DNA of 64,000 nt from Betaproteobacteria bacterium (GTDB lineage: Bacteria > Pseudomonadota > Gammaproteobacteria > Burkholderiales > Casimicrobiaceae). The position numbers and the translations under genes were made by a program. The stretch is taken from NCBI GenBank assembly GCA_031396395.1, contig JANNKR010000059.1:2750-66749 (forward strand). Direction: 5' to 3'. Position 1 is the first letter of the stretch; every line of letters begins with the position of its first letter. Positions 11,195 to 31,337 of this stretch are shown here, in pieces. The notes below the pieces were generated by a model, which was not told where the DNA came from, searched no databases, and worked only from the letters and a program-made list of their open reading frames with translations.

Positions 11195-11699
11195 AACAGA
11201 GTCAATTTTTGCGGCGTTGACCGCGCTGGCTTTATTTCAATTGCGTCCAAAATGCGTGACGCCACATACACTCCTCCCCACGCGCGGCCCGTTCTCTCGA
11301 TGAGTATGCCCGCGGCTTGAAGCGCCATTACGGCAGCCCTGGCGGTTGGTTGGCTAACTTGCAGCAATCGCGTTGCACGCCTTACCGTCATGTATGGGTT
11401 AGTAAGGAGATGGTCGATCAATGCCAGCGCTTTTGGCTTCGCGTGCATCGACTTCCGAAATTCCTCCCGGATCTGCAGGAGCTCGGTTGCCTGCGCGGCG
11501 GCCTGTGAAGCGGTCTCAATCACGCCCGTCAGAAAGTACCGAATCCAGTCATTCCACGCCAAGTGCGTCCGCCCGCGACGGGAGCGCAACCACATCGTTT
11601 TCGAAGGTGAGGGTGGCGGGAGCGACGCGGGCGCAAACGCCGGGTTGCCTTTTGCGGTTTGGACAATGTTGCCGCTGGCGTTCACGAAGTCTTGAGCAT
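11191..11699 (-). pseudogene. Fic-family gene with the catalytic core deleted and a probable 5' frameshift
   Basis: Fic_N-like SGNIVQTAKGNPAFAPASLPP joined directly to the C-terminal RTHLAWNDWIRYFLTGV + HTH; no HPFxDGNGR motif; AAGGAG RBS precedes ATG 11699, which is one base out of frame. Confidence 0.7.
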
Positions 11700-16520: not shown

Positions 16521-17294
16521 GTGACGTTTCCATTGCCGCTTCCCGACCTGCCGTGGCTTGCGTTGGCCGCGATCCTGTTGATCGTGCTGCTTGCCTATAC
16601 CGTCTTCGGCGCCACGGGCTTCGGGTCGTCGCTGATCGGCGTGCCATTGCTCGCGCACCTGGTGCCCCTGACCTTCGCCGTGCCGCTCATCACGTTGCTC
16701 GATGCCGGCGCGGCGACGACGCAAAGTGTCCGCCAATGGCGCGATGCGTCGTGGCCCGTGTTCCGTCGCATCCTGCCGGCGATGCTGGTCGGCATTGCCA
16801 TTGGCACGACGCTTCTGGTCTCCCTGCCGCAGGCGCCGCTGCTGCTGGCACTCGGTATTTTCGTCAGCGGCTACGGCGCGTACCTTTTCCTCGGCACGCG
16901 TAGGTTGCGCACCGCGCCGGACTGGCTCGCCTACCCGATTGGCCTGGTGGGCGGCGTGTTCTCCGTGACCTTCGGGACCGGCGGGCCGATCTACATGGTG
17001 TTCCTGTCCGCGCGCATCCACGACAAGTCGGTGCTGCGCGCGACATCGTCGGTGGTCATCACGGTAAGCGTGTGGATCCGCCTCGTCGTGTTCCTGGTGG
17101 CAGGACTACTGCTGCACCCGCCGCTGCTCACGCTGGCGCTGCTGATGGTACCGGTGATGATCCTTGGACTCGTCATCGGCAACCGGTTGCATCACGCGCT
17201 CAGCGGGTCCGGGTTCATGCGCCTGCTGGCGCTGCTGTTCCTGATCAACGGGATATCGCTGCTGGTGCGTGCCGTGCAGGGGTTGTCACTGTAA
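16521..17294 (+). CDS. TSUP (TauE/SafE) family membrane protein
   Basis: GATGFGSSLI and FGTGGPI repeat motifs; about 8 TM helices. Confidence 0.88.
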   Translation: MTFPLPLPDLPWLALAAILLIVLLAYTVFGATGFGSSLIGVPLLAHLVPLTFAVPLITLLDAGAATTQSVRQWRDASWPVFRRILPAMLVGIAIGTTLLVSLPQAPLLLALGIFVSGYGAYLFLGTRRLRTAPDWLAYPIGLVGGVFSVTFGTGGPIYMVFLSARIHDKSVLRATSSVVITVSVWIRLVVFLVAGLLLHPPLLTLALLMVPVMILGLVIGNRLHHALSGSGFMRLLALLFLINGISLLVRAVQGLSL

Positions 17295-17297
17295 CTA

Positions 17298-17327
17298 TCG
17301 CTGTGAATGTCGCTGTGAATGTCGCTG
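17298..17327 (+). repeat. Short tandem repeat TCGCTGTGAATG x2.5
   Basis: TCGCTGTGAATG TCGCTGTGAATG TCGCTG directly before REP doublet 2. Confidence 0.7.
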
Positions 17328-17328
17328 C

Positions 17329-17407
17329 GTAGGCGAGGCTTCAGCCTCGCAGCACGGGGTAACCGTCCAAAGTGACCGGAATTCCGCGAGGCTGAAGCCT
17401 CGCCTAC
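17329..17407. repeat. GTAG-type REP doublet, copy 2
   Basis: GTAGGCGAGGCTTCAGCCTCGC at 17329-17350 and its reverse complement ending at 17407. Confidence 0.85.
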
Positions 17408-17603
17408 GGGGCTTTCCCCCGCCCCCGCGGCGCCGTTCGCCCCGCTTCCCGCCGGTTCATCCCCGGTTTCCCGTGTTTCGTCGCTTGGCCATTGAGCCCC
17501 TCAAGGCACCCGCCTAGAGTTCGATCCATGGCAGCCACGCAGTGAATCCGAAACCGGCTACCACGGCATCTTAAAGACGATTCCACAGATTCAGGAGGCA
17601 ACC

Positions 17604-17846
17604 ATGACGACGACGACCTCAACCCGCTGGACCGAAAAGCTTGTGCTGGTAGCGCTTACGCTCGCACTTGGCGTGGGTTCGCTCGAATTGGTGTCGAACG
17701 GGATGCGTTCTCCCGCGCCGGAGACCCTGGCCGCCAAGCAGCAGTTCCTCGCGGCCGAAGAAGCCCGCGCCTACGACATCCGCACGCTGCAAGCCGGAGA
17801 AGTGCGGTTTGCCGAGGTCGACGTGACCGCAACGCGCGACCGCTGA
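17604..17846 (+). CDS. Small single-pass membrane/secreted protein (80 aa)
   Basis: AGGAGG RBS; hydrophobic LVLVALTLALGVGSL; C-terminal RFAEVDVTATRDR; followed by a terminator. Confidence 0.75.
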   Translation: MTTTTSTRWTEKLVLVALTLALGVGSLELVSNGMRSPAPETLAAKQQFLAAEEARAYDIRTLQAGEVRFAEVDVTATRDR

Positions 17847-17900
17847 ACGACGATTCAACGTTTCCCCCTTGCCGGCTCCCCCCTCCCTGCCGGCAATACC

Positions 17901-17926
17901 AAGGGCCCGCGAAAGCGGGCCCTTTT
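17901..17926. terminator. Intrinsic terminator hairpin between convergent genes
   Basis: AAGGGCCCGC-GAAA-GCGGGCCCTT followed by TT. Confidence 0.8.
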
Positions 17927-17946
17927 CTATCGACCACCCCCTGACG

Positions 17947-18732
17947 CTACAACCCGGTGGCCCTGCGGATCAGCGCGAAGTACAGCCGATAGGGCAGTAT
18001 CCGCAGCAATTTCAGCCTGCGGGTAAACGCCTTGGGAAAGTGGATCTCGAATTCGCCGGCGCGCAGTCCGGCCATGATCTCGCGTGCGGCCTCGTCGGCG
18101 GAGATGAGATTCGGCATCGTGAATGCGTTGCTGTCGGTCAGCGGCGTCCGTACGAATCCGGGCATGATCAGATACACGCCCAGTCCCTTGGGATGCAGGT
18201 CGAAGTAGAGCGTCTCGGTGAAGTTGACCAGCGCCGCCTTGGATGCGCCGTAGATCAGCGCCTTGGGCAGACCGGAATAGCCGGCTACGGAGGCGACGAT
18301 GCCGATGCCGCCGCGGCCTTGCGCCAGCAGGCCGGGCAGTACCGCGGAACACGTATTGATGACGCCATGCAGGTTGGTCTCGAGCAGCGCGCGCGAGTCC
18401 TTCTCGTTCAGTTCCCAGGCGCGCACTTCCTGGTGCGTGCCGGCCACGATCAGGATCAGGTCGATGCCGCCCCATTGTGCGTGGATGCGCTGCGCGGCGG
18501 TAGCGACGGCTTCCGTCTTCGTGAAATCGAGCGGTTCGACCAGCGCATGCTCATGGGCGCCGGCCACCGCCTGCAGCTTGTCGGTGGACCGGGCCGACAG
18601 CGCCACGCGCGCGCCGGCGGCCAGCAAAGCCTGCGCCGTGGCCGCGCCAATGCCGGTGGACGCGCCGATGATCCACACGCGACATTGCGGCCAGGCAGGC
18701 GGCGGCGGATTGAGCGGCGAAAAGAGTCCCAT
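17947..18732 (-). CDS. SDR oxidoreductase (RSP1087-like member of the cfa/DUF1365 operon)
   Basis: IIGASTGIG, VASVAGY, YGASK. Confidence 0.88.
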   Translation of the reverse strand: MGLFSPLNPPPPAWPQCRVWIIGASTGIGAATAQALLAAGARVALSARSTDKLQAVAGAHEHALVEPLDFTKTEAVATAAQRIHAQWGGIDLILIVAGTHQEVRAWELNEKDSRALLETNLHGVINTCSAVLPGLLAQGRGGIGIVASVAGYSGLPKALIYGASKAALVNFTETLYFDLHPKGLGVYLIMPGFVRTPLTDSNAFTMPNLISADEAAREIMAGLRAGEFEIHFPKAFTRRLKLLRILPYRLYFALIRRATGL

Positions 18733-18739
18733 GGGACTC

Positions 18740-19267
18740 CTATCGCTTGCGAAACGACAGCGTGACCTGGCCCACCTCGACGCCGAACTTCGACATCCGG
18801 GTGCGATTGAGCATTGTCTTCTCGTCGATCAGGTACATCCAGTCGTCCATGTCCATGTGCCATGTCCTGCCGTCGACCGGCAGCGCCAGCACGTAGTTCC
18901 AGCGCAGCGCGTTGCCCGCGGCGCTGCCCGCCGCGATGCCGACGACGTCGCCCGCGGTGCCAGTGTAGCGATCGCCGTCCTTCACCAGCTTCCAGACGCG
19001 GTTCTCGCGGGTGCCGTCGGAGAACTCGAAGTGCTCGTCGAGCGTGCCCTGGTTGCCGCTCCAGTTTGCGTCGATCCTCACGTAGAAGCGCTTCAGGACC
19101 TTGCCGGAGCGGTCCTGGAACATGCCCCAGCCGTCGATGGTGCCGTTGAAGTACTGCGCCAGGTCGAGCGTCGGCTTCTCGTTGCGGTAGTCGTCGACAT
19201 TGACGCTCGCACATCCCGCAGCGAACAGCACCAGCAGCGTGACCAGCAGACGACGCATCGATTTCAT
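18740..19267 (-). CDS. DUF3833-family lipoprotein (lipocalin-like)
   Basis: Lipobox FAAGC; YFNGTIDGWGMFQDRSG, LDEHF, MDDWMY. Confidence 0.85.
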   Translation of the reverse strand: MKSMRRLLVTLLVLFAAGCASVNVDDYRNEKPTLDLAQYFNGTIDGWGMFQDRSGKVLKRFYVRIDANWSGNQGTLDEHFEFSDGTRENRVWKLVKDGDRYTGTAGDVVGIAAGSAAGNALRWNYVLALPVDGRTWHMDMDDWMYLIDEKTMLNRTRMSKFGVEVGQVTLSFRKR

Positions 19268-20571
19268 CGGATTCTCCAGCGGGCATCGAACCAGGACAGC
19301 GCGAATATCGCACCGATCTTCAAGGCGCTCGGTACGCCTGCGTACACCAGCGCCAACGCGCCCAATGCCGCCGGATCGCGACTACCCGGTGCATAGCCGA
19401 GCGCGGCCAGCAGCGGCAAGGCGATGCCGGCCGCGAGTGCCAGATTGAGCTTGGTGGCCAGCGTCCACAAGCCGAAGTAGGCGCCGGTGCCCTGCATCCG
19501 CCCGTTGCGGCCGATCACATCGGCCAGCAGCGACGGGGGCAGTGCCAGGTCGGCGCCGAGTGCTAAGCCCGACAGCACGCAGATGATGGCAAAGGCGACG
19601 ACATCGCCCGTGCCCAGCAACGCGGCCCATACGAACGCGACCACGGCGGCCAGCATCGCGGCCTGCAATGCCCGCACCTTGCCGAGCCGGGCCGATAACC
19701 GGATCCACAGCGGCATGCCCGCCGCGCCGGCGACGAAGTACAACGTCAGGAAGAGCCCCTGCCGCGACTCGGCGCCCAGCACATCGGCAATGTAGAACAG
19801 CACCAGCGTCGCCGGCACCGCGGAAGCGATGCCGTTCAGCATGAACACCGCCAGGAGGCGCCGGAAGTATGGGTCGGCCAGCGGTGCCCGCATGCCGGCA
19901 AAAATAGGTTCGGATCGGGCGCCCGCACGTGGCGCGGCCGGCGCGAGTGCCAGCGTCACGAGGGCGCACCCCACGCAGAAGACTGCGAATACCAGCGCGA
20001 AGCGCGGCAGGCCCGCTGCTTCGCCGCCAGCGCCACCCAGCAGTCCCGGCGCGATGCTGGCCACCACCACGCCGACCAGTGCCAGCGATTCACGGGTCGC
20101 CGTGATGCGCGTGCGCTCCACCGGATCGTTCGACAGTTCCGCGCCCCACGCGTTGTGATTGATCGTGGCGAGACTGAAAGCGAGATAGACCAGCGCCATC
20201 GCACCGGCCAGCCAGCCGAGCAGCGCCGCTTCGCCTTGCACGGGCGGCATGAACAACGCGATCATGCCCAGTGCCAGCACCGGGATCGACAGCGCGATGA
20301 GGGGCTTGCGCGACGAAGCACGATCGCTCCACGCACCGAGCAATGGGTCGATCAGGCCATCGACCAGGCGCAACACCAGCAGGAGCACCCCCAGCGCCGT
20401 CAGCGAGACACCAAGGTGGCCGCCATAGAACTTGGGCAGGTGGACATAGAGCGGCAACGCGGCCATCGCCAGCGGCATGCCGAGCAGGCCATAGGCCGCG
20501 AGGGCCGTGAAACGCAGGGGCGCCACCGCCGATGTCGGCAGTGGCGCGACCATCGCCGCCGTTGGGGTCAC
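19264..20571 (-). CDS. MFS (GPH/MFS_2-like) transporter
   Basis: DGLIDPLLGAWSDR, ERTRITATRE, 12 TM pattern. Confidence 0.88.
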   Translation of the reverse strand: MTPTAAMVAPLPTSAVAPLRFTALAAYGLLGMPLAMAALPLYVHLPKFYGGHLGVSLTALGVLLLVLRLVDGLIDPLLGAWSDRASSRKPLIALSIPVLALGMIALFMPPVQGEAALLGWLAGAMALVYLAFSLATINHNAWGAELSNDPVERTRITATRESLALVGVVVASIAPGLLGGAGGEAAGLPRFALVFAVFCVGCALVTLALAPAAPRAGARSEPIFAGMRAPLADPYFRRLLAVFMLNGIASAVPATLVLFYIADVLGAESRQGLFLTLYFVAGAAGMPLWIRLSARLGKVRALQAAMLAAVVAFVWAALLGTGDVVAFAIICVLSGLALGADLALPPSLLADVIGRNGRMQGTGAYFGLWTLATKLNLALAAGIALPLLAALGYAPGSRDPAALGALALVYAGVPSALKIGAIFALSWFDARWRIR

Positions 20572-21137
20572 GGCGCGCCCAGCAGCTTTTGCCGGAAGTC
20601 CGCGCGCGAGGATTTTGGATGCAGCCAGATGCCGAAGAAGGCGTCGGCGAAACCAGGGTCGCCGATCTCTCCGATCGCCTTGCCGTTGTGAAAGTAGCGC
20701 ACCGTGCCGGCGCCGACGTTCACCCCTGTCAACCGGTCGCCGCGCTTCACGTCGGGGAACACGCGTGTCATCGCCTCGCCCCAGCGTGTCCGGTCCCCGG
20801 GGCTGCCCATGCCGAGCTTGGTGATTTCATCCATGCTGCGCTCGGCGATCTTCGCGCCATCGAGGCTGCGGTGATAGTGCAGGTCCAGTGCATAAGGCCC
20901 GGTTTGCGGCCAGCCGGGCACGGCGCTCCAGAACCAGCCGTCGTAGACCGAGATACCGAAGAAGGTGAGCTCGCCGCCGCCCCGGGCCTTGAGCGTGGGG
21001 GCGATCTCGGCAATCGCCGCGGGCAGCGGTGGCGCCGCGGCGCGTGCGGGTGCCTGCACCACGATCAGCGCAAGCGCACTGGCGGCGATCAGCAGGCGCA
21101 CGCGCCTAGCGGCGGATGAATGTGTATTGCGCGACAT
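20568..21137 (-). CDS. Chalcone-isomerase-fold secreted protein
   Basis: Signal peptide; GGGELTFFGISVYD, VFPDVKRGDRLTG, FFGIWL; alternative GTG start at 21101. Confidence 0.8.
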   Translation of the reverse strand: MSRNTHSSAARRVRLLIAASALALIVVQAPARAAAPPLPAAIAEIAPTLKARGGGELTFFGISVYDGWFWSAVPGWPQTGPYALDLHYHRSLDGAKIAERSMDEITKLGMGSPGDRTRWGEAMTRVFPDVKRGDRLTGVNVGAGTVRYFHNGKAIGEIGDPGFADAFFGIWLHPKSSRADFRQKLLGAP

Positions 21138-22338
21138 CAGTGGTACCCGAATCGAAGCCGGCGGCGCAGTAGGCGAGATAGAAGCGCCAGCAACGCAGGA
21201 ATTTCTCGTCGAAGCCCAGGGCGCGGATCGCCGGGGCCTTGGCATCGAAGTTTGCCAGCCAGCGCTTGAGTGTCTCCGCGTAGTCAGGTCCGAAGGCACG
21301 CACCCGTTCGAGTTCGAGGCCGGCGGCCAGTGCAACGTCGACGAAGCGCTTGGGCGAGGCCAGCATCCCGCCGGGAAAGATGTATTGCTGGATGAAGTCG
21401 GACTGCGTGCGATAGCGTTCGAACCGGTCCTCGGCGATCGTGATCGTCTGCACGCAGGCACGCGCACCGGGACGCAGCGCCGCATGCACGGTGCGGAAGT
21501 AGGCGGGCCAGTACCGCTCGCCCACCGCCTCGAACATCTCGATCGACGCAATGCCATCGAAGGTACCCTCCACCGTGCGGTAATCCTGAATCCGCAGGTC
21601 GGCGCGATCCGCGAGGTCGGCCCGGTCGAGACGCGCCCGTGCCCACGCGGTCTGCTCGTCGGAGAGCGATATCCCGGTGACGTGGTGTCCGGCCCGCGCC
21701 GCGGTCTCGGCAAAGCCACCCCAGCCGCAGCCGATCTCGAGCAGCCGCGCGCCATCGGGCAGCGCCAGGTCGGCCAGCATGCGCTCGTACTTCGCTTGTT
21801 GCGCCCCCGGCAGCGCACGGCCGAAGTCGCCTTCGAAGAGTGCCGATGAGTAGGTCATCGTCGGATCGAGCCACAGGCGATAGAACTCGTTGCCGAGGTC
21901 GTAGTGCGCGAGGATGTTGCGGCGCGCCTGCCGCTTGGTGTTGGCATTGAGGAAGTGCTTGGCGCGCAGCAGCGAGCGCGTCCACCAGTGCCCATAGAAC
22001 GTGCGCTCCAGTGCCGACTGGTTGGCGGCGAGCACGGTCAGCAACTGCGTCAGATCGGGCGTATCCCAATGTCCGGCCATGTAGCCTTCGGCAAAGCCGA
22101 CGTCCCCACCCTTGAAGGCATCGGCCGCCACGCGCCAGTCGCGCAGGTACAGCACGGCAGGCACCGCTTTGGCGTGGGGCGCCGGGGCGCCGCCGGGGCC
22201 GAAGCGGCGCATCACGCCGTCGGGCGTAGTCAGTTCAACGCTCCCCGTCTCGAGGCGCTGCAGCAGCGCAAACAGGAAGCGGGTGGCGGCAGGCACCCGT
22301 GCCGGCGCCGCGGTGATCGTGGTGTCGAGGGAGGTCAT
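21106..22338 (-). CDS. cfa: Cyclopropane-fatty-acyl-phospholipid synthase family methyltransferase (UfaM-like)
   Basis: AHYDLGNEFY..WLDPTMTYSSA, LLEIGCGWGG, SIEMFEAVG, YIFPGG, WRFYLAYC; ATGA overlap with the upstream gene. Confidence 0.9.
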   Translation of the reverse strand: MTSLDTTITAAPARVPAATRFLFALLQRLETGSVELTTPDGVMRRFGPGGAPAPHAKAVPAVLYLRDWRVAADAFKGGDVGFAEGYMAGHWDTPDLTQLLTVLAANQSALERTFYGHWWTRSLLRAKHFLNANTKRQARRNILAHYDLGNEFYRLWLDPTMTYSSALFEGDFGRALPGAQQAKYERMLADLALPDGARLLEIGCGWGGFAETAARAGHHVTGISLSDEQTAWARARLDRADLADRADLRIQDYRTVEGTFDGIASIEMFEAVGERYWPAYFRTVHAALRPGARACVQTITIAEDRFERYRTQSDFIQQYIFPGGMLASPKRFVDVALAAGLELERVRAFGPDYAETLKRWLANFDAKAPAIRALGFDEKFLRCWRFYLAYCAAGFDSGTTDVAQYTFIRR

Positions 22339-23174
22339 GAATTGCGCGTGAGCAGATGGGCAGGAGGCTGCGGTTTGGAAAAGAACGGCACGCGCTTGCG
22401 CCACAGGCGCACGGCTTGCCAATGGATGCGGGCGACGACACCGACGGTGAACCAGCGGTAGCGCCACAGCAGCATGCGGGCCGCTGCCGGCGACAGCGGC
22501 GCTTCGTCGCCGGAAACGTGTGTTGCGAGCAATGGCTCCTGGTCGTCGTCGCCGCCATCGAAGTAATCGATGCGGGCCAGCCAGCGGCCGGGGCCGAAGT
22601 GGAAGCGGAACGTGTAGTGACCGGTGACGGCGCAAAACGGCGAGACGTGGAACACCTTCTGCGCCGCCAGCGTTTCACCAGTGCGCAAGGCGCGGCCATC
22701 GGCATGCGCCAGCAGGTAATGGTGCGTTTCGCCGAAGGTATTGTTCACCTCCGCCAGCACGGCACGAACCTCGCCGTTGGCCGCGTGGCACACCCAGAAG
22801 CTGACCGGATTGAACACATAGCCCAGCATCCGCGGAAAGGCATACAGCACGATCGGGCCGTCGGCGGCGATGCCTTCGCGCGCCAGCAGCGTCTTGATCC
22901 ATGTCGCCAGGGATGACCCGTCGCGGGGCCCATGATCGCGTTCGTGGAAGGCGATCACGCCGCCGCGATTGAAACGCACGCCGCACGACTCCAGCGCGTC
23001 GAGCCCCGAAAGCGGCAGGCGCAGGCAGAACGCGGGATAGGTGAACGCATTGCGGGCCGGCCGCGAACGCCGGTGCATCACGTCGCCCGCCACAAGGGTC
23101 GGCGTCGTGGCGGCGGTGGCCGGGTCGGTTGCCCCTGGCGGCGTGTTCAGGGCGCCTTGCATGTTCATGGTCAC
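22335..23174 (-). CDS. DUF1365 family protein (UfaO-like)
   Basis: HRRSRPARNAFTY, PRMLGYVFNPVSFW, AEVNNTFGE, KVFHVSPF, IHWQAVRLW. Confidence 0.9.
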   Translation of the reverse strand: MTMNMQGALNTPPGATDPATAATTPTLVAGDVMHRRSRPARNAFTYPAFCLRLPLSGLDALESCGVRFNRGGVIAFHERDHGPRDGSSLATWIKTLLAREGIAADGPIVLYAFPRMLGYVFNPVSFWVCHAANGEVRAVLAEVNNTFGETHHYLLAHADGRALRTGETLAAQKVFHVSPFCAVTGHYTFRFHFGPGRWLARIDYFDGGDDDQEPLLATHVSGDEAPLSPAAARMLLWRYRWFTVGVVARIHWQAVRLWRKRVPFFSKPQPPAHLLTRNS

Positions 23175-24463
23175 GCGGCGATGCGCTCGGCAGTGCCGCG
23201 ATCGGCGTTCGCCGAAAGTCGCGCAATCCCGTCGGCCACGGCATGGGCCGACGCAAGCCCGTCCTCATGAAAGCCGTGCCCGAGCCATGCGCCTGCAAAC
23301 CAGGTGTTGCGGCTGCCCTGCAGCGCCGCGAATCCCGCCTGTGCCTTGTGGGCGCGGCCATCGAGCAGCGGATGCGCGTACTCGAACTCGCCCAGCACAT
23401 GGCTGCGCGCAGGCTCGAACGGCGGATTCAGCGTGACGATGACGGGCGTGCGGCACGGCAGCGGCTGCAGTTTGTTGATGAGATAGGAAACCGCCACCGG
23501 GCGATCGCCCTGGGGGTCGTCGGCGGCCAGGTAGTTCCACGCGGACCACGCGCGCGTGGAGCGTGGCAGCAGTGCCGTGTCGGTGTGAAGCACCACGCGG
23601 TTGGGTTGATAGCGCACCGCCGCCAGCAGCCGGTCCTCGACGTGGGAAGCGTCGCCCAGCAACGCGCGGGCCTGGTCGCTGTGGCAGGCCAGCACGACAT
23701 GATCGAAGTGCTCGCGCGCCGCCGCCGGCGAGTCGATCTCCACGCCGTTGGCGCGGCGGATGATCTGTTGCACCGGCATGGCAACGCGCACATCGGGCAA
23801 CTGTCCGGCAATGATGTCGACGTACGTGCGGGCGCCGCCGACGACCGTTTTCCATTGTGGCCGATCGACGACCTGCAGCAGGCCATGGTTGTGGCAGAAG
23901 CGGATGAAGGTGGGCAGCGGGAAGTCGAGAATGTCGCGCTGGGGCGCGGACCAGATCGCGGCGGCCATCGGCAGCAGGTACCAGTCCCGGAATGCAGCGC
24001 TGTAGCGCTCGGCGTCGAGAAACTGGCTCAGGGCAAGCGTTGGCACGATGCCCTGCGCATGCATGGCGGTGGTGGTGCGGTTGAACCGCATGATGTCGCG
24101 CAGCATGCGCCAGAACGCGGGGCGAAGGGCGTTGGCCGGCTGCGCGAACACGGCGCGCAGGTTGGTTCCCGACCACTCGAGACCTGCACGGTCCACGCGG
24201 CATGAAAACGACATCTCGCTGTGCACGCTCCGGACGCCGAGTTGCGCAAACAACGCATTGAGCCGCGGATACGTGCGGTCGTTGAAGACCAGGAAGCCGG
24301 TATCGACCGGAAACGTGCGGCCATCGACCGTGACGTCGACGGTAGCCGTATGTCCGCCAAGCCGCGTTGCGGCCTCGAACAACGTGACCGCATGGCCCTG
24401 CTGGTGCAGGAGCCATGCAGCGCCCAGTCCGGAGATGCCGGAGCCGACAATCGCTATGCGCAC
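23171..24463 (-). CDS. FAD-dependent oxidoreductase (UfaD-like desaturase)
   Basis: IVGSGISGL, LGGH, VDTGFLVFN..TYP, AWSAWNY, WLGHGFHEDG. Confidence 0.9.
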   Translation of the reverse strand: MRIAIVGSGISGLGAAWLLHQQGHAVTLFEAATRLGGHTATVDVTVDGRTFPVDTGFLVFNDRTYPRLNALFAQLGVRSVHSEMSFSCRVDRAGLEWSGTNLRAVFAQPANALRPAFWRMLRDIMRFNRTTTAMHAQGIVPTLALSQFLDAERYSAAFRDWYLLPMAAAIWSAPQRDILDFPLPTFIRFCHNHGLLQVVDRPQWKTVVGGARTYVDIIAGQLPDVRVAMPVQQIIRRANGVEIDSPAAAREHFDHVVLACHSDQARALLGDASHVEDRLLAAVRYQPNRVVLHTDTALLPRSTRAWSAWNYLAADDPQGDRPVAVSYLINKLQPLPCRTPVIVTLNPPFEPARSHVLGEFEYAHPLLDGRAHKAQAGFAALQGSRNTWFAGAWLGHGFHEDGLASAHAVADGIARLSANADRGTAERIAA

Positions 24464-24524
24464 GTGACGACGACTTTCAGTGGGTTCAACATGGCTTCGA
24501 AGTGCAGGCGGCGAGCCGCGGGAG

Positions 24525-25340
24525 TCAGTCGATCAGCGCCGCGCCGCAGCCTTCAATCTCTGCATACGCGGAATGGTTGTGGATGGATTCAAAATTCTCG
24601 CTCGCGACCGTGAAGCGGCCTACGCGCGGGTCGCGCTGCAGCCGCAACGCGATGTCGCGGACGAGATCCTCGACGAACTTGGGGTTGTCATAGGCGCGTT
24701 CGGTCACCCACTTTTCGTCCGGCCGCTTGAGCAGGCCATACACCGCGCATGAAGCCTCGTCCTCGGCGATGCGTGCCAGTTCCTCCAGCGAAAGCTCGCC
24801 CACCATGACATCGGCCCGAAGCGTCAGGTGCGACCGCTGGTTGTGCGCGCCATAGTCCGAGATTTTTTTCGAGCATGGACAAAGGCTCGTCACCGGCGCC
24901 GTCATGGCCACGGTGACGCGCACGGGCGCACCGACGTCCTTGGTGATCGTCAGCCTGGCCTGGTAGTCGAGCAGGCTTTCGACGCCGGACACGGGCGCTG
25001 CCTTGCGGATGAAATAGGGGAACGAGAGTTCGAGATGTCCCGAATCGGCCTCGAGACGCGTCAGCATCTGCGTGAACATGCGCCTCAGTCCGGCCAGATC
25101 GAGTGGCTCGCGCGGTACCTCGAGTGTCTCGACAAACCGCGACATGTGCGTGCCCTTCACGTCGTGCGGCAGGCCCACGTACATCGCGAACTCCGCCACC
25201 GTATGCTGCACGTCACCGCCCGCCGTGCGCAGTGCAAGGGGGTAGCGCAGGCCCTTGATGCCGACCTTCTGAATGGGAAGCTGGCGCACATCGGGCAGCG
25301 ACTGCGTATCGGGGAGAAAGAATTTTTCCGGAGCGTTCAT
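24525..25340 (-). CDS. folE2: GTP cyclohydrolase IB
   Basis: IQKVGIK, KGTHMSRF, TSLCPCSK, AHNQRS, NPKFVED, ESIHNHSA. Confidence 0.95.
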   Translation of the reverse strand: MNAPEKFFLPDTQSLPDVRQLPIQKVGIKGLRYPLALRTAGGDVQHTVAEFAMYVGLPHDVKGTHMSRFVETLEVPREPLDLAGLRRMFTQMLTRLEADSGHLELSFPYFIRKAAPVSGVESLLDYQARLTITKDVGAPVRVTVAMTAPVTSLCPCSKKISDYGAHNQRSHLTLRADVMVGELSLEELARIAEDEASCAVYGLLKRPDEKWVTERAYDNPKFVEDLVRDIALRLQRDPRVGRFTVASENFESIHNHSAYAEIEGCGAALID

Positions 25341-25509
25341 CGAAAACCCTTCGAGGACGTTACGCCCGCTATGCCAGCGGGCGGTGCTGCGGCAATCCAC
25401 TGCCGTCACCAGGAGACCGGGCCGGCGCCGTTCGGGATGCGCCGGATGCCTGCAGTGTCCGGTTGCCCGTGGTCGTACATGTTGGTACGTGGTGTGGGTC
25501 GGCGCGGAT

Positions 25510-26076
25510 TCAACCCTTCGCCGAGGCGGGTTTCTGCGCCAGCAACTGCTCGATGAGGCGGGTGATTTCTCGTGCGTCCGGCGCCACCGCGCTGGCGAAG
25601 CTCGCGACGGGCTTGCCGTCCCGGTCGATCAGATATTTGTGAAAATTCCATTTCGGCACCTGTGCCGTCGCCTTGGCCAGCTCGGCATACAGAGGATTGC
25701 CCGACAACTTGGATACCGAGGCCTTTTCGTAGAGCGGAAACTGGATGCCGAAACTCGTTCGACAAAACTCGGCGATCTCCTTGTTGGTGCCAGGCTCCTG
25801 TCCGCCGAAGTCGTTGGACGGGAATCCGACCACCACCAGACCCCGGTCGCGATACTTGCGATAAAGGGCCTCCAGGCTCTCGTACTGGTTGGTGTAGCCG
25901 CACTGGCTTGCCGTGTTCACGACCAGGATCACGTTGCCGTGGTACCGACACAGGGACTGCGGGTCGCCGGTTTGCAGGAGCTTGAACGAATGCTGCAGCA
26001 GCGCGGGACAAGCGGCATGGGCGGTCGACGCGACGCCCGCGGCCTGCGTCCATAGCGCGGGGAACGGAGGCGCCAT
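25510..26076 (-). CDS. Glutathione peroxidase family protein (start uncertain)
   Basis: VVNTASQCGYT, GFPSNDFGGQEPG, PKWNFHKYL; in-frame ATGs also at 26256 and 26343. Confidence 0.85.
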   Translation of the reverse strand: MAPPFPALWTQAAGVASTAHAACPALLQHSFKLLQTGDPQSLCRYHGNVILVVNTASQCGYTNQYESLEALYRKYRDRGLVVVGFPSNDFGGQEPGTNKEIAEFCRTSFGIQFPLYEKASVSKLSGNPLYAELAKATAQVPKWNFHKYLIDRDGKPVASFASAVAPDAREITRLIEQLLAQKPASAKG

Positions 26077-26320
26077 CGCTTGACGTACTGTTGTTTCGTC
26101 CAGGTAGACAATACCGTCCCGAAGACCTGGCGCCGATGGCCCCCCCCAGCTCGCCGGAAGCGTCGCTGAAATGGCGGTGGCGACAGCACTTTCGTTGAAG
26201 AATGGCGCAGCGTCCAGGCGACCGCCGTAGGACAACGTGGCGAAAGCGGCAACCATACAGGCCAGAGACCGAGTCTGGACTCGCCACTTGGCCAATGGAT
26301 TGGGCCAGGAATACTTGGAA

Positions 26321-26411
26321 TGGACAAAGTTTGATTGGGTCATGGACATTAGTTCCGTTAGGCTGTACATTAACAGCTGACCTAATTTTTGTCAACCACA
26401 TGTCCTGGACA
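26321..26411. promoter_or_regulatory. Overlapping divergent sigma70-like promoters with TnnACA repeats (candidate CarH/LitR operator)
   Basis: Rightward TGGACA(26343)-N17-TACATT(26366); leftward TTGACA(26395-26390)-N17-TAATGT(26372-26367); TGGACA at 26321, 26343 and 26406, TGTACA at 26364. Confidence 0.6.
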
Positions 26412-26413
26412 AA

Positions 26414-27346
26414 ATGAACGATCTAGCTGAAGTGCAAGGAATGTTTCTCAACATCACGGCCGTCGAGCGCGAGACCGGACTATCCAAGGACGTTCTGCGC
26501 ATGTGGGAGCGGCGCTACGGCTATCCCAAGCCGGATCGCGATCCCAATGGCGAACGGCAGTACACGCCCGCTGATATCGGCAAGCTAAGGGCCATGAAGC
26601 GGCTCCTGGATATCGGCCTGCGACCCGGCAAGATTATCGCGCTTTCGCATGACGAACTCGATGCAATGGCCGACGCGCGAACCCCGTCGCGGCAGGACGC
26701 GCTTGCGCCGGCGCTGGAAAACGATGTGATCGCGATGTTGAAGGTGCACGATGCGACCGCGCTGCAAAATACGCTGGCCAACCTGATGATGCGCCAGGGG
26801 CTGCAGCGATTCGTGCTCGATACCATCACGCCGCTCAACCGCGCGGTTGGCGATGCGTGGATGCGGGGCGAACTCCAAGTTTTCGAGGAACATCTCTACA
26901 CCGAGCAATTGCAGGCGGCACTGCGCACCGCGATCAACACGTTCCCGCGCCAGGTGGGTTCGCCGCGGGTACTGCTCACCACCTTCCCGTCCGAACAACA
27001 CGGCCTCGGACTGCTGATGGTCGAGGCGATGATGGTGCCCGAGGCGGCGCAATGCATTTCACTGGGGCCGCAAACGCCGCTCGAGGATATCCGGCGGGCG
27101 GCGCTCGCCCACAAGGTCAATATCGTGGCGCTGTCATTTTCGGCGGCGTTTCAGATGCGGCAGGCCATCGACGGCCTCGCCACGCTGCGCCGGCAGCTGC
27201 CGGCCCACGTCACGCTATGGGCTGGCGGCGAAATGACGCGGCGCATCCGCAAGACCATCCCCGGCATCGTCCTCATCCCCGACCTCGCATCGATCGTCAA
27301 CGCGTTGCGCAGCTGGCGCTCGCACTACGTGCCGCATCCGCAGTAG
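26414..27346 (+). CDS. litR: MerR-family regulator with cobalamin-binding domain (CarH/LitR type)
   Basis: VERETGLSKDVLRMWERRYG (MerR HTH); W-x9-EH (WMRGELQVFEEH); E-x-H-x2-G-x41-S-x-S-x27-GG. Confidence 0.85.
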   Translation: MNDLAEVQGMFLNITAVERETGLSKDVLRMWERRYGYPKPDRDPNGERQYTPADIGKLRAMKRLLDIGLRPGKIIALSHDELDAMADARTPSRQDALAPALENDVIAMLKVHDATALQNTLANLMMRQGLQRFVLDTITPLNRAVGDAWMRGELQVFEEHLYTEQLQAALRTAINTFPRQVGSPRVLLTTFPSEQHGLGLLMVEAMMVPEAAQCISLGPQTPLEDIRRAALAHKVNIVALSFSAAFQMRQAIDGLATLRRQLPAHVTLWAGGEMTRRIRKTIPGIVLIPDLASIVNALRSWRSHYVPHPQ

Positions 27347-27431
27347 GCGGCAAGGATGCCGGGACCGAGGAACCGGGACGCCCGGCGCGCCGACGGGTAA
27401 TATGGTGCTTTCCCGTCCTCTTTCGACCCCA

Positions 27432-28265
27432 ATGCTCTATCCCGAACTCTTCAAGGCCTTCGAAGCGGTGCGCTGGAGCCTCGACACCGACGTGCCGTGG
27501 CACGAATTTGACGCGACCAGGCTCACCGACGAGCAGGCGCGCACGATCAAGATGAACGCCATCACCGAGTGGTCGGCATTGCCGGCCACCGAGATGTTCC
27601 TGCGCGACAACCGGGACGACAGCGACTTTGCCGCCTTCATGTCCATCTGGTTCTACGAGGAGCAGAAGCACGCGCTGGTGCTGATGGAATACCTGCAGCG
27701 CTTCCGCCCCGACTTCGTGCCCACGGAAGAGGAACTGCACGCGGTGCGCTTCGAGTTCGATCCGGCGCCTGCCTTCGAGACGCTGATGCTGCATTTCTGC
27801 GGCGAGATCCGGCTCAACCACTGGTACCGCTGCGCGGCCGAGTGGCACACCGAGCCGGTGATCAAGAAGATCTACGAGCTCATTTCGCGCGACGAGGCCC
27901 GCCACGGTGGCGCCTACCTGCGCTTCATGAGGCGCGCGCTGGACCGCGGTGGTGCCGGAGCCAAGCAGGCCTTTGCCAAGATCGGGGTGCTGATGGCCAG
28001 CGCCGCGCGGGCCAGCAAGCCGCTGCACCCCACCAACCTGCACGTCAACCGATCCATGTTTCCCGAGGACACCGTGCAGAGCAAGCTGCCGGACCCGTCC
28101 TGGCTCGAGCGCTGGCTGGACGAGCAGATCCGCTTCGACGCGAAGTGGGAGCAGCGGGTGATCGGGATGATCCTCAAGAACCTGTCGTCGCTGTTCGGCG
28201 AGACCTTCGAATCGGTGCAGCAGCTGAACCGGTTCCGCAAATCGCTGGCGCCTGCCCCGAGCTGA
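27432..28265 (+). CDS. Ferritin-like diiron protein (acyl-ACP desaturase-like fold)
   Basis: ITEW, EEQKH, GE, DEARH diiron ligands; start MLYPELFK (alternative ATG 27402). Confidence 0.8.
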   Translation: MLYPELFKAFEAVRWSLDTDVPWHEFDATRLTDEQARTIKMNAITEWSALPATEMFLRDNRDDSDFAAFMSIWFYEEQKHALVLMEYLQRFRPDFVPTEEELHAVRFEFDPAPAFETLMLHFCGEIRLNHWYRCAAEWHTEPVIKKIYELISRDEARHGGAYLRFMRRALDRGGAGAKQAFAKIGVLMASAARASKPLHPTNLHVNRSMFPEDTVQSKLPDPSWLERWLDEQIRFDAKWEQRVIGMILKNLSSLFGETFESVQQLNRFRKSLAPAPS

Positions 28266-28296
28266 CTGACCCGCGGTACGCTTATCATGGGCGGTC

Positions 28297-29211
28297 ATGT
28301 GGACCGCGATCACCCTGGCACTGTTGATTGCCGCCGGCGTTGCCGCCTACGGGGCCTGGGCAGCGCATGCCGTTGCCCACGGCGCGGCCGCCTGGCCTTT
28401 CGTGCTCGGACTGCCGCTTGCCTATCTGGCGGTGCCGTTTTTGTTCACCTGCCTGTGGGTGACGATGGGATGGTGGATGCGTTCGCCGCGACCGGAAGAC
28501 GCGGTGCTCGATTGGGGGCAGAAGGCGCGCCTCTTCGTCGACGAATTCGTGGCCCTGTCGCGGTCGGCGCCGAAAATGATCTTCTATCGCTGGCTGGTGC
28601 GCGACCCGCCGCCGGCGCCAGCGAAGCTGCCGGTGCTGCTGATCCATGGCGTGGGCTGCAACGCCGGAGTCTGGTCCGGCATGAAGAAATATCTGGATGC
28701 GCAGGGGGTGGGGCCGGTGTACGCGCTCTCCTACGGTCCACCGCTGGCGAGCGTTGACAGTTTCGCGGCACAGGTGGCCGCGAAGATCGACGCAATCCGT
28801 GTGGCAACCGGTGCTGCCCAGGTCATCATGGTCGGGCACAGCATGGGCGGACTCGTCGGCATTGCCTATCTGCGTCGCTATGGCGGCGATCGTGTGCGCC
28901 GGCTGATCACGATCGGCACGCCATTCCACGGCAGTCGCCATGCGTACATGATGTTCGGACAATCCATGCAGGATCTGCGCCCCGGCAGCAATTTCGTATC
29001 CGACATCGATGTTCCGGGCACCTACGCCGCGCAGGTGCCGGTGGTGTCGCTATGGTCCTGGCATGACTCGATGGTGACGCCACAGACCTCGGCGCGCCTC
29101 GATTGGGCCGACAACATCGCGATCACCGGCGTGGCGCACAACGCTTTGCTGGGCGATCGCGGCGTGTGGGCGCGCGTGGCCGGCGAAATCCGCAAGGCGC
29201 GTGCCGCGTAG
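28297..29211 (+). CDS. Membrane-anchored alpha/beta hydrolase (lipase/esterase)
   Basis: Two N-terminal TM helices; LLIHG, GHSMGG nucleophile elbow, GTPFHGS, HN near the C-terminus. Confidence 0.88.
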   Translation: MWTAITLALLIAAGVAAYGAWAAHAVAHGAAAWPFVLGLPLAYLAVPFLFTCLWVTMGWWMRSPRPEDAVLDWGQKARLFVDEFVALSRSAPKMIFYRWLVRDPPPAPAKLPVLLIHGVGCNAGVWSGMKKYLDAQGVGPVYALSYGPPLASVDSFAAQVAAKIDAIRVATGAAQVIMVGHSMGGLVGIAYLRRYGGDRVRRLITIGTPFHGSRHAYMMFGQSMQDLRPGSNFVSDIDVPGTYAAQVPVVSLWSWHDSMVTPQTSARLDWADNIAITGVAHNALLGDRGVWARVAGEIRKARAA

Positions 29212-29241
29212 GTGTTGTGCAGGCGTGGTGCATGCGTGGGT

Positions 29242-29307
29242 GTAGGCGAGGCTTCAGCCTCGCAGGTGATACCGACGCGTTGCCCGCAAGGCCGAAGCCT
29301 CGCCTAC
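29242..29307. repeat. GTAG-type REP doublet, copy 3 (one arm degenerate)
   Basis: GTAGGCGAGGCTTCAGCCTCGC at 29242-29263; second arm GCAAGGCCGAAGCCTCGCCTAC ending at 29307; between convergent genes. Confidence 0.82.
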
Positions 29308-29345
29308 ACGTTGTCCCTGCCGCGCCTTTCGCCGCAACGCAATCC

Positions 29346-31337
29346 CTACCAGTGAATGCCCTGCGTCAACTGCGCGAATGCCATCTGCTCGGGACTCAAA
29401 GCCTGCTGTACGGCCGGCTCGCCTTTCTTGCCCTGTGCCGCGGCTGAATCGGGAAACATGTTGAACGCGGTGTTGAGCAGGATCTGCGTCAGGCGCGGCG
29501 CGGCGGCGTGACTGATCGCCCCGAAGATGCCCAGCCTCGTCGCGATGCGCACCGACTTGTAGACAATCGCCTCGACCACCAGGTCGGCCGCCTGTTCCGG
29601 CGACAGGGTCGGGACATTCTCGTACATCTTGGTGGGCGCGATCATCGGCGTGCGCACCAGCGGCATGTTGATCGTCGTGAAATTGATGCCCTTGTCGAGG
29701 AACTCCGACGATGCGCAGGCCGCAAACGAATCCAGTGCCGCCTTGGACGCGACGTACGCGGAGAAACGCGGGGCATTCGACAGCACGCCGATCGACGAGA
29801 TATTGATGATGTGACCCTGATGCTGCTCGATCATCTTCGGCAGGAAGCCCATGATGAGCCTCAGCGCGCCGAAATAGTTCAACTGCATCGTGCGCTCGTA
29901 GTCGTGGAAGCGATCGAAGGAGTTGATCACCCCGCGCCGGATCGAACGGCCGGCATTGTTGACGAGATAGTGACAGGTGCCGTGTTCCTTCAGCACGCGC
30001 GCCACCAGCGCATCGCATGACGCGAGTTCAGACACGTCCGCCGTGTACATCCAGCAGCGCCCGCCCGCGGCTTCGATCTCCTTTTTCGTCTCGATCAGCT
30101 TTTCCTCGCCACGCGCGACCAGGATCACCTTGGCGCCGGCGCTGGCCATCTTGATCGCGGTCGCCTTGCCGATGCCCGACGACGCGCCGGTGACCACGAT
30201 CACCTTGTCCTTGACCTTGCCGGCAAGCGTGCGGTCGATGAAGAGATCGGGATCGAGATTGCGTTCCCAGTAGTCCCAGATCTTCGGCGCATAGGACTCG
30301 AGCGCCGGCACGCTGATGCCGGAGCCCTTCAAGGCCTTGACCGTTTCGCGGTTGTCGTAGCGGGTGGGCCAGTTGATGAACTGGAAGACGTCCTTCGGCA
30401 CGCCGAGGTCGGTGAGCACCGCGCGCATCATGCGCTTGACCGGCGCCAGCGAACCCAGGCCGTAGAGGATGGGCGCGGGAATGAAGCCGAACATCCGCGC
30501 GTTGAGGCGCATGGTCATCTGCGGCGCATGCGCCACCTTGGCGAAGATATTGAGCACCTCGCCGATCCGGTTCGGTTGCGGATCCGTCAGGTGGAAGCAC
30601 TTGCCGTCGAGGCCCTTCTTGTGCGCGAGATGGTCGATCGCATCGGCGACATAGTCCACGGGCACGATGTTGATGCGGCCACCTTCGATGCCGACCATCG
30701 GCATCCACGGCGGCAGCATGTTGCGCATTTTCTGGATGAACTTGAAGAAATAGTAGGGGCCGTCGATCTTGTCGATGTAGCCGGTCTTCGAGTCGCCGAC
30801 GACGAAGCCCGGGCGGTAGATTCGATACGGCCGCTTGCATTCGTTGCGGACCACGGCCTCGGAATCGTGCTTGGTCGCGAAGTAGGGATGATCGAGGTCT
30901 TCGGCCTCGTCGAACATGTCCTCGCGGAACACGCCGTCATAGAGGCCCGCGGCCGCGATCGAACTCACATGGTGGAAGCATTTGGCCGTCACGGCCGTGG
31001 CGAACTCGACGGCATGCCGGGTGCCATCGACGTTGGCAATCTGCTGCGATTGCGCATCGGCCTTGAGGTCGTAGATCGCGGCCAGGTGGAACATCTGGTC
31101 GACCTTGCCTTTGAGCTTGCGCAGGTCCGCATCCGCGACACCGAGGTTCTTCTTGCCGAGATCGCCGATGACCGGAATGATCTGCTTGTCGGTCGCGCCC
31201 CACTCGATGCGCAACGCATCAAGTTTCTTGACCGAGGCCTTGCGCACCAGCACATGGATCGGCTGTCCGCGTTTCAGGAGATTGCGGACCAGGAACTGTC
31301 CGATGAATCCGGTCGCGCCGGTGACGAAGTAGGCCAT
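29346..31337 (-). CDS. Two-domain fatty acyl-CoA reductase (alcohol-forming; Marinobacter Maqu_2507-like)
   Basis: N-terminal extended SDR (YFVTGATGFIG, FHLAAIYD, HVSSIAAAG, KIDGPYYFFK) + C-terminal SDR (VTGASSGIG, NNAGRSIRR, MQLNYFG, SAYVASK, ...QGIHW); AAGGAGG RBS. Confidence 0.88.
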   Translation of the reverse strand: MAYFVTGATGFIGQFLVRNLLKRGQPIHVLVRKASVKKLDALRIEWGATDKQIIPVIGDLGKKNLGVADADLRKLKGKVDQMFHLAAIYDLKADAQSQQIANVDGTRHAVEFATAVTAKCFHHVSSIAAAGLYDGVFREDMFDEAEDLDHPYFATKHDSEAVVRNECKRPYRIYRPGFVVGDSKTGYIDKIDGPYYFFKFIQKMRNMLPPWMPMVGIEGGRINIVPVDYVADAIDHLAHKKGLDGKCFHLTDPQPNRIGEVLNIFAKVAHAPQMTMRLNARMFGFIPAPILYGLGSLAPVKRMMRAVLTDLGVPKDVFQFINWPTRYDNRETVKALKGSGISVPALESYAPKIWDYWERNLDPDLFIDRTLAGKVKDKVIVVTGASSGIGKATAIKMASAGAKVILVARGEEKLIETKKEIEAAGGRCWMYTADVSELASCDALVARVLKEHGTCHYLVNNAGRSIRRGVINSFDRFHDYERTMQLNYFGALRLIMGFLPKMIEQHQGHIINISSIGVLSNAPRFSAYVASKAALDSFAACASSEFLDKGINFTTINMPLVRTPMIAPTKMYENVPTLSPEQAADLVVEAIVYKSVRIATRLGIFGAISHAAAPRLTQILLNTAFNMFPDSAAAQGKKGEPAVQQALSPEQMAFAQLTQGIHW

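Follow-up and report, generated by a model that had tools for sequence, protein, structure and literature searches.

A candidate light switch linking a CarH-type LitR regulator to a furan-type fatty acid operon in Casimicrobiaceae

RESULTS

The DNA analyzed here, referred to as the window, is a stretch of 64,000 nucleotides from one contig of a betaproteobacterial metagenome-assembled genome (MAG) of the family Casimicrobiaceae (4.0 Mb, 387 contigs, 96% complete). Within it, a gene for a regulator of the LitR/CarH family (litR, 26414-27346, plus strand) lies back to back with a nine-gene minus-strand unit that contains genes resembling those for furan fatty acid (FuFA) synthesis. The regulator, the spacer between the two units, and the genes on either side suggest a light switch controlling a lipid-protection operon.

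Gene identities were assigned from the listing of open reading frames (ORFs) and from Pfam and NCBIfam scans. The minus-strand unit starts with gpx (25510-26349), encoding a member of the glutathione-peroxidase family (Pfam GSHPx, 104.9 bits), followed by folE2 (24525-25340) for GTP cyclohydrolase IB (Pfam GCHY-1, 298.7 bits; NCBIfam FolE2, 275 at a cut-off of 215). Next come genes for a UfaD-like FAD oxidoreductase of the phytoene-desaturase/amine-oxidase superfamily (23171-24463; Pfam Amino_oxidase and NAD_binding_8), a UfaO-like DUF1365 protein (22335-23174; Pfam DUF1365, PF07103, 246 bits over the full model), and an S-adenosylmethionine-dependent methylase of the CMAS family (21106-22338; Pfam CMAS, 270 bits), which is a candidate UfaM or possibly an RSP1089-type paralogue. 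The remaining four genes encode an exported protein of the chalcone isomerase (CHI) fold with a signal peptide and the N-terminus MSRNTHSSAARRVRLLIAASALALIVVQAPARA (20568-21137; Pfam Chalcone_3, 36.4 bits), an MFS_2 (GPH-type) transporter (19264-20571; Pfam MFS_2, 222 bits), a DUF3833 lipoprotein with the lipobox LFAAGC (18740-19267; Pfam DUF3833, 230 bits), and, as the last product of the operon, a short-chain dehydrogenase/reductase (SDR; 17947-18732; Pfam adh_short, 147 bits). On the plus strand, litR is followed by a gene for a di-iron carboxylate protein (27432-28265, in an ORF opening at 27402; weak Pfam FA_desaturase_2 match) and by a third gene for a membrane-anchored, LipA-type alpha/beta-hydrolase (28297-29211; Pfam Abhydrolase_1, Lipase_2, and LCAT). 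A previous sequence-only reading of 17947-28265 had named genes that were all recovered by Pfam at the positions it gave, but it did not mention the di-iron gene (27402/27432-28265), which lies in the same range. It was right about the divergent operon as a neighbor of litR and overlooked the downstream lipase-like and di-iron genes, which are among the most constant partners of litR.

The genes of the minus-strand unit are tightly packed. From the FAD oxidoreductase gene to the SDR gene the junctions are 4-nt overlaps, including that between the UfaD-like and DUF1365 genes; the exceptions are 32 nt at the CMAS/CHI-like junction and a 7-nt gap between the DUF3833 and SDR genes. The only other gaps in the nine-gene run measure 169 nt (gpx-folE2) and 61 nt (folE2-FAD oxidoreductase), and no promoter-like or operator-like site was found in either of them. 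Rfam gave no matches in 17000-30000, a range that covers the spacer and the operon. The gpx start was placed at the MSM at 26349, which is common to the closest relatives in an ortholog alignment; an ATG at 26370 was rejected as a start because it falls within the promoter -10 region. For litR, an alternative start is present at 26441.

LitR consists of a MerR-type winged helix-turn-helix, a bundle of four helices, plus a B12-binding domain of the Rossmann type, matching Pfam MerR_1 (50.9 bits), B12-binding_2 (30.9 bits, cut-off 23), and B12-binding (33.9 bits, cut-off 32.1). In a phmmer search it matched the Thermus thermophilus CarH/LitR structures 5c8d/3whp from end to end (E 1.7e-30), with the Wx9EH and ExHxxG motifs in register and residues 5-67 aligned with the DNA-binding domains of CarH/CarA; the identity to T. 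thermophilus CarH is only ~29%. An AlphaFold2 (AF2) model of moderate quality (pLDDT 71), computed from an alignment of 26 orthologues, gave the CarH structures 5c8e/5c8d, full-length free and DNA-bound, as top Foldseek matches in the PDB (E ~1e-13), followed by other B12 photoreceptor domains. A CarH homologue is defined by possession of two motifs, the first of which, Wx9EH, caps the adenosyl group and is specific to adenosylcobalamin (AdoCbl, AdoB12) photoreceptors, being absent in MetH-type domains (PMC8156234). The second is the cobalamin motif ExHx2G-x41-SxV/T-x22-27-GG, whose ExHxxG part is the lower-ligand loop. Both motifs are present in LitR exactly as the sequence-only reading had given them, as (numbered from M10) W140-x9-E150-H151 and as E185-x-H187-x2-G190, x41, S232-F-S234, x27, G262-G263, and both are invariant in 26 orthologues with 71-92% overall identity, which indicates that the B12 residues are under selection. 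As both B12 domains and both signature motifs are present and invariant across the orthologues, the sequence assigns the regulator to class I (CarH-type) LitR and not to the B12-independent classes II and III. That some proteobacterial LitR proteins act independently of AdoB12, as had been cautioned before, agrees with the literature on classes II and III (PMC9758184; PMC6739363); the concern that the regulator of the window is of this kind was not borne out.

Only 64 bp separate the starts of gpx (26349) and litR (26414), and this spacer harbors two divergent sigma70 promoters that overlap. P_litR (26343-26371, plus strand) has the -35 sequence TGGACA, a 17-nt spacer, and the -10 sequence TACATT, and was the sole sigma70-like match in a promoter scan of 24400-27450. 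P_gpx (26367-26395, minus strand) has the -35 sequence TTGACA (26395-26390), likewise a 17-nt spacer, and the -10 sequence TAATGT (26372-26367). The two -10 hexamers overlap, and each -35 hexamer lies within the early transcribed region of the opposite unit; transcription is predicted to begin near 26378 on the plus strand and near 26360 on the minus strand. Both promoters are bracketed by a pair of palindromes, 63 bp apart from center to center. Site A, GGTCATGGACA (26338-26348), is a degenerate copy of the family consensus TTGTCYTGGACAA; it contains the P_litR -35 hexamer and, relative to P_gpx, spans approximately positions +10 to +20, thereby overlapping the start codon of gpx. Site B, TGTCCTGGACA (26401-26411), is a perfect palindromic 11-mer located just upstream of the P_gpx -35 hexamer within the litR leader.

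The CarH operators of Thermus and Bacillus consist of tandem 11-bp direct repeats of the type nAnnTnnACAn (PMC8156234). Tandem repeats of the Thermus type were rejected as the operator of the window: only partial matches were obtained, with single 11-mers agreeing at just 3-4 of the 5 specified positions. The candidate operator is instead formed by the two palindromes TTGTCCWGGACAA, 63 bp apart, together with a TGTCAA element. MerR-type activators act on promoters with a spacer of 19-20 nt. As the P_litR spacer has 17 nt, occlusion, and hence repression, appears to be the likelier mode of action at this promoter.

Conservation of this arrangement was analyzed in 80 related loci, one per species, from Casimicrobiaceae MAGs, the records of which are labeled Casimicrobiaceae or Burkholderiales. 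When up to 2 mismatches were allowed, at least one copy of the palindrome was found within 260 nt upstream of litR in 72 of the 80 loci, and 24 of these 72 carry two copies, at approximately -101 and -38. A copy at the position of site A is present in 67/80 loci, and site A is the most conserved block of the spacer in the 68 loci that were aligned on it. The consensus of these 68 loci reads TTGTCYTGGACAA, N15-17, TACAAT, ~17 nt, TGTCAAC, N5, GTCCWRGACAA, ATG, and the orthologue promoters are TGGACA-N17-TACAAT for P_litR and TTGACA-N17-TATTGT for P_gpx. The layout of the switch is thus kept in 68/80 loci despite a LitR identity of only 71-93%. The exact TGTCAA sequence, which represents the minus-strand -35 hexamer, occurs more often in loci with a divergent gene (36/53) than in those lacking one (2/9; Fisher p = 0.02). 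The overlapping -10 hexamers and the flanking palindromic operator retained in these 68 loci support the regulatory link between litR and the divergent operon that had been proposed from the window sequence.

The exact TGTCCTGGACA 11-mer occurs four times in the 4.0-Mb genome (0.75 copies expected): in the litR spacer, upstream of a LitR-like gene on contig C342, in the glnS/xseA spacer on contig C54, and inside an ORF. Two of the four copies are therefore located upstream of LitR-family genes. Near-consensus palindromes elsewhere in the genome lie mostly within ORFs and were set aside; only the site on C342 and possibly that on C54 are intergenic. The copy at C54:8674, between the genes for glutaminyl-tRNA synthetase and xseA, could have arisen by chance or could mark an additional regulon site.

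Gene order was compared in the 62 loci with 4 kb or more of sequence upstream of litR and in the 64 loci with enough sequence on its 3′ side. The core of FAD oxidoreductase, DUF1365, and CMAS genes is divergent from litR in 38/62 loci; gpx lies beside litR in 38/62 and folE2 in 15/62. Downstream, the lipase-like gene is present in all 64 loci, which makes it the most constant neighbor of litR, above the furan-type cluster and the di-iron gene (36/64). Of the 24 genomes in which the core is not adjacent to litR, 19 have no DUF1365 homologue at all, and the other 5 have only a distant FAD/DUF1365/CMAS cluster with 35-51% identity. In L097 (4004-13277) such a distant cluster (35-47% identity in L097/L094) adjoins another LitR-like gene, and in L094 (3027-10382) it lies downstream of a TGTCCAGGACA site while the main litR has no cluster; these arrangements indicate that the pairing of a LitR-type regulator with a lipid cluster arose more than once.

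In 7 loci an intact DPRP gene (CryB/FeS (6-4)-photolyase type) is inserted between litR and the di-iron gene. Its carriers include four close relatives with 90-94% LitR identity (L001, L004, L005, and L006; L004:6369-7919), whereas L002 retains a broken, internally deleted remnant (11110-11693). In the window and in L003 no DPRP gene follows litR, and the window keeps only ~55-85 bp at this place (27347-27431). In view of the intact genes in relatives, the L002 remnant, and this short residue, we conclude that the gene was lost recently in the lineage of the window. A copy with 53% identity survives on contig C7. Among the arguments that sequence offers for a response of the regulator to light, this occurrence of the DPRP gene in relatives' litR operons is the strongest.

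In Rhodobacter sphaeroides and Rhodopseudomonas palustris, the CMAS-type methylase UfaM makes 11Me-12t-18:1, the phytoene-desaturase-like FAD enzyme UfaD converts the lipid to 11Me-10t,12t-18:2, and the DUF1365 protein UfaO inserts O2-derived oxygen, yielding 9M5-FuFA (Lemke et al., PMC7380195). The assignment of UfaM, UfaD, and UfaO to RSP2144, RSP1091, and RSP1090 in the sequence-only reading is in line with this study, in which the contiguous R. palustris genes RPA2571-2570-2569 (ufaD-ufaO-ufaM) were necessary and sufficient for FuFA synthesis, and the in-operon CMAS RSP1089 of R. sphaeroides as well as RSP1088 and RSP1087 were dispensable, UfaM being encoded elsewhere (PMC7380195). The FAD oxidoreductase, DUF1365, and CMAS genes of the window belong to the same families, have the same order as R. 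palustris ufaD-ufaO-ufaM, and are translationally coupled, as expected from the furan-type lipid genes reported earlier for this region. The DUF1365 gene is single-copy in the genome. Among solved structures, LkcE is the nearest to the UfaD-like protein (E 5e-32), whose match to UfaD is at the family level only. The CMAS protein scored below all NCBIfam Cfa/CfaB cut-offs, and all homologues retrieved in a large search were proteins of close relatives bearing the generic name "cyclopropane-fatty-acyl-phospholipid synthase". The only other CMAS of the genome, on contig C19, is CfaB-like at 447 bits. Pseudomonas putida has a split between cfaB and an in-cluster cfaA/ufaM, which the two CMAS genes of the window genome resemble.

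Among the companion genes, gpx encodes an exported protein with a Sec-type signal peptide according to the ortholog alignment. The gene parallels that for the periplasmic glutathione peroxidase PgpD of the Shewanella RpoE2-ChrR regulon (PMC4336711). The Gpx proteins of the L001-L006 subclade and the window (25990-26349) share an extra conserved stretch of ~50-60 amino acids (APFFDE.AVA...GLVYLDETSV) between signal peptide and peroxidase domain, which is absent in other family members. In Pseudomonas, the LitR targets that respond to light by induction include folE genes, and a plausible role of folE2 would be to supply precursors for photolyase antenna pterins or for folates. It is speculation that the exported CHI-fold protein, the DUF3833 lipoprotein, and the MFS_2 transporter traffic lipids.

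Identity of the di-iron protein stays above 80% in a set of more than a hundred protein clusters, and its E...ExxH...E...ExxH pattern is invariant in the orthologue alignment. Its AF2 model (pLDDT 77, pTM 0.77) gave weak but consistent matches to soluble acyl-ACP desaturases and to lipid-binding R2lox (TM 0.5-0.6). The lipase-like protein starts with a hydrophobic stretch, read by eye as two transmembrane helices, and its catalytic domain resembles Bacillus subtilis LipA/EstA and Burkholderia lipases (E 1e-12 to 1e-8 in the PDB). On this basis, both proteins are probably lipid-directed and light-induced. After the lipase-like gene, a long and near-perfect inverted repeat (GTGTAGGCGAGGCTTC...GAAGCCTCGCCTACAC, 29228-29300) separates it from a convergent gene for a 707-amino-acid fatty-acyl reductase; the repeat probably serves as a bidirectional terminator or represents a REP-like element.

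The genome encodes three further LitR-like proteins, on contigs C61, C7, and C342. The C61 protein (C61:6413-7432) is a full-length paralogue with 33% identity in which the signature residues are exchanged (W to V, EH to EL, ExH to DxN), and it resembles a CarA-like or B12-independent derivative. The C7 and C342 proteins have a cysteine-rich C-terminal domain and no B12 domain, suggesting that they are class-III-like. At C342:4038-4106, upstream of the MerR-family gene (4101/4131-5204), TGTCCTGGACA is accompanied by another, degenerate copy of itself and by a TTGTCAA element, which suggests cross-regulation among LitR paralogues. The C342 regulator gene adjoins a DUF393 gene, and folE1 is ~2.4 kb away. 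At C7:12491-15927, the class-III-like regulator gene is located upstream of, and divergent from, the only DPRP/CryB-type photolyase gene of the genome; between them lies a small gene (~13835-14142) whose product has a signal peptide, is cysteine-rich, and appears by eye similar to high-potential iron-sulfur proteins. The TGTCCTGGACA palindrome is not present in this region.

Matches to the photolyase families PF04244 and PF03441 were obtained only on C7 and C33, the latter contig carrying a cyclobutane pyrimidine dimer photolyase gene, and genes of the phytoene/squalene synthase family (SQS_PSY) only on C181. Together with the lack of sigma-70-family genes on the contig of the window, these results agree with the earlier statement that the window contains no photolyase, carotenoid, or extracytoplasmic function (ECF) sigma factor gene. 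A canonical ChrR was not recognized in the genome: of the Cupin_7 matches, the one on C224 is a stand-alone cupin, and the C347 protein has no zinc anti-sigma domain. Control by SigmaE/ChrR was rejected, as there is no TGATC-N14-20-CGTA sequence in 17947-28265, no sigma factor gene on the contig, and no canonical ChrR. The NCRF[LM] signature of LOV proteins did not occur in any reading frame of the genome. A cobalamin riboswitch precedes btuB/btuF and a PduO-type adenosyltransferase is encoded, while a CobA-type enzyme was not found in the genome search; judged by these genes, the organism can import and adenosylate corrinoids.

DISCUSSION

From its sequence we consider it reasonably probable that the locus is a light switch based on a CarH/class I LitR repressor that controls a lipid-protection operon. 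In the dark, LitR would hold adenosylcobalamin, oligomerize, and occupy both copies of the TGTCCTGGACA palindrome. At site A the repressor would cover the P_litR -35 hexamer and the first bases to be transcribed in the gpx operon, and at site B it would abut the P_gpx -35 hexamer in the litR leader; both promoters would be shut because the bound repressor covers the two sites. In the light, photolysis of the Co-C bond would release the repressor and turn on two transcription units. The first would provide LitR, the di-iron desaturase-like protein, and the membrane lipase, together with the CryB/(6-4)-photolyase-type protein in close relatives. The second comprises gpx, folE2, and the genes for the UfaD-like, UfaO-like, CMAS, CHI-like, MFS_2, DUF3833, and SDR proteins. 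Its products would methylate, desaturate, and oxygenate phospholipid vaccenate, most likely to methyl-branched, diunsaturated, and furan fatty acids, and these lipids would scavenge singlet oxygen. The unit would also yield an exported peroxidase and extra pterin/folate precursor, and, more speculatively, the CHI-fold protein, the lipoprotein, and the transporter would move products within the envelope. AdoB12 binding, repression, light response, and lipid product are deduced here from sequence. A homologous cluster is light-induced 25- to 33-fold in Pseudomonas.

Several observations weigh against this proposal. The P_gpx -10 hexamer (TAATGT) was too weak for the promoter scanner and was read from the sequence, and site A carries 2 mismatches in the window. 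The SxS of LitR is a small departure from the published consensus SxV/T. The palindrome pair in place of the tandem 11-bp direct repeats of Thermus and Bacillus CarH weakens the assumption of an identical binding mode; it does not weaken membership in the family, because published CarH operators already vary between species. As the C342 regulator gene shares the palindrome, a LitR paralogue could occupy the sites. The in-cluster methylase is a candidate UfaM but could be an RSP1089-type paralogue, and four operon genes are without an assigned role.

The last two points are taken up by an alternative in which the regulation is as proposed and the product is not a furan fatty acid. With a methylase of the RSP1089 type, the operon would make another modified lipid (cyclopropane, methyl-branched, or oxidized) or would process photo-oxidized lipids. 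The dispensability of RSP1089, RSP1088, and RSP1087 for FuFA synthesis in R. sphaeroides, with UfaM located elsewhere, fits this explanation, as do the four additional genes and the score of the CMAS protein under all curated Cfa thresholds, which makes its product unreadable from sequence. However, the genome has a single copy each of the UfaD-like and UfaO-like genes, both in translational coupling with the methylase gene, the in-cluster CMAS of R. palustris is UfaM itself, and the only other CMAS of the genome is CfaB-like. We regard a non-furan product as improbable on balance, yet as an alternative of considerable weight.

A second alternative accepts the switch but assumes that light does not act only or mainly via B12 and that the palindromes are shared with the LitR-family proteins encoded on C7, C342, and C61, which would use another chromophore or receive a relayed signal, like several PplR proteins in Pseudomonas putida. 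All four proteins have nearly the same recognition-helix region (LR[MV]WERRYG), a perfect palindrome and a similar TTGTCAA element are found upstream of the C342 regulator gene, the C7 regulator gene adjoins the only CryB gene of the genome, and class II and III LitR proteins are B12-independent (PMC9758184; PMC6739363). On the other hand, the palindromes accompany the window-type litR in 72/80 loci regardless of the genes upstream, the B12 residues are invariant and hence under selection, and the genome offers no LOV partner. This explanation therefore seems unlikely to us. That the regulator senses cobalamin status instead of light, as a dark-acting B12-dependent repressor of an oxidative-stress regulon, is very improbable: B12 is imported with no obvious synthesis pathway, so that its availability could vary, but MetH-type domains lack the Wx9EH cap that is specific to AdoCbl photoreceptors, a photolyase-family gene is part of the litR operon in relatives, and homologous regulons are light-induced.

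The CarH-type switch that we favor shares with the CarH/class I LitR systems of Thermus thermophilus, Myxococcus xanthus, Bacillus megaterium, and Streptomyces the three-part architecture and both motifs, and, as far as can be read from the window, an operator overlapping a sigma70/sigmaA promoter, autoregulation, and a regulon directed against photo-oxidative damage. Unlike in these systems, the apparent targets are fatty-acid modification, peroxidase, pterin, and lipase genes and not carotenoid genes, two 11-13-bp palindromes 63 bp apart take the place of 3-4 tandem 11-bp direct repeats, two overlapping divergent promoters share a single pair of sites, and SxS replaces SxV/T.

The regulators of gene sets against photo-oxidative stress differ between groups: alpha- and gammaproteobacteria use sigmaE-ChrR, Pseudomonas uses class II LitR with LOV proteins, and Vibrio and Burkholderia use B12-less MerR/LitR proteins. 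In P. putida and P. mendocina, the class II LitR proteins PplR/PmlR act with a short-LOV protein as MerR-type repressors of an operon with SDR, FAD-oxidoreductase, hypothetical, and ufaM genes, as well as of photolyase and folE genes, and bind a palindrome-like operator (TGTACA type) over a sigma70 promoter, similar to the arrangement in the window. They differ in having no Rossmann B12 domain, in not needing B12, and in sensing light via a separate flavin mononucleotide-binding LOV protein, whereas both B12 domains of the window LitR are intact and the genome is without the LOV signature. The Ufa pathways of R. sphaeroides (RSP2144 and RSP1091-1090) and R. palustris (RPA2569-2571) employ the same FAD, DUF1365, and CMAS families, in the window in the R. 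palustris order, and an SDR is present, as with RSP1087; control by sigmaE-ChrR in R. sphaeroides is different, and gpx, folE2, and the CHI-like, MFS_2, and DUF3833 genes are outside the characterized pathway. The regulons of RpoE2-ChrR in Shewanella/Vibrio and of VCA0056 in Vibrio cholerae match in content (periplasmic Gpx, a cfa-type operon, photolyases, and SDR), but they depend on an ECF sigma/anti-sigma pair or a B12-less MerR protein, whereas the region studied here is without a sigmaE-type promoter and its contig without an ECF gene.

These comparisons make it credible that the locus represents a new wiring of two known photoprotection systems and not a new type of system. A full-text literature search yielded no paper joining CarH with DUF1365 or with cyclopropane or furan fatty acid genes under B12 control. 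A more specific proposal, doubtful as a whole and offered tentatively, is that an AdoB12-held LitR oligomer bridges the two 13-bp palindromes and silences both promoters. The palindromes are six helical turns apart, and the ~75 bp involved, with the promoters sharing their -10 region, would be looped or wrapped, a geometry undescribed for the CarH family. Light would then release a carotenoid-free lipid regulon with three arms, namely furan-type fatty-acid synthesis, a new di-iron desaturase-like enzyme, and the litR-linked membrane lipase, which perhaps excises photo-oxidized acyl chains.

To our knowledge, B12 photoreceptors are known almost solely as switches of carotenoid genes, and furan-type operons as targets of sigmaE-ChrR or of B12-independent LitR classes. 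The window joins such a photoreceptor with a furan-type operon in a clade of Betaproteobacteria from soil and freshwater that are uncultured, and the interest of this combination is tempered by the fact that both parts are already known. If the proposal is true, a single switch of ~75 bp would serve as a compact operator/promoter cassette with two outputs, and the di-iron protein and the LipA-like membrane lipase would be nominated as uncharacterized enzymes of a light regulon. AdoB12 photoreception would then drive the photoprotection of membrane lipids in unpigmented bacteria.

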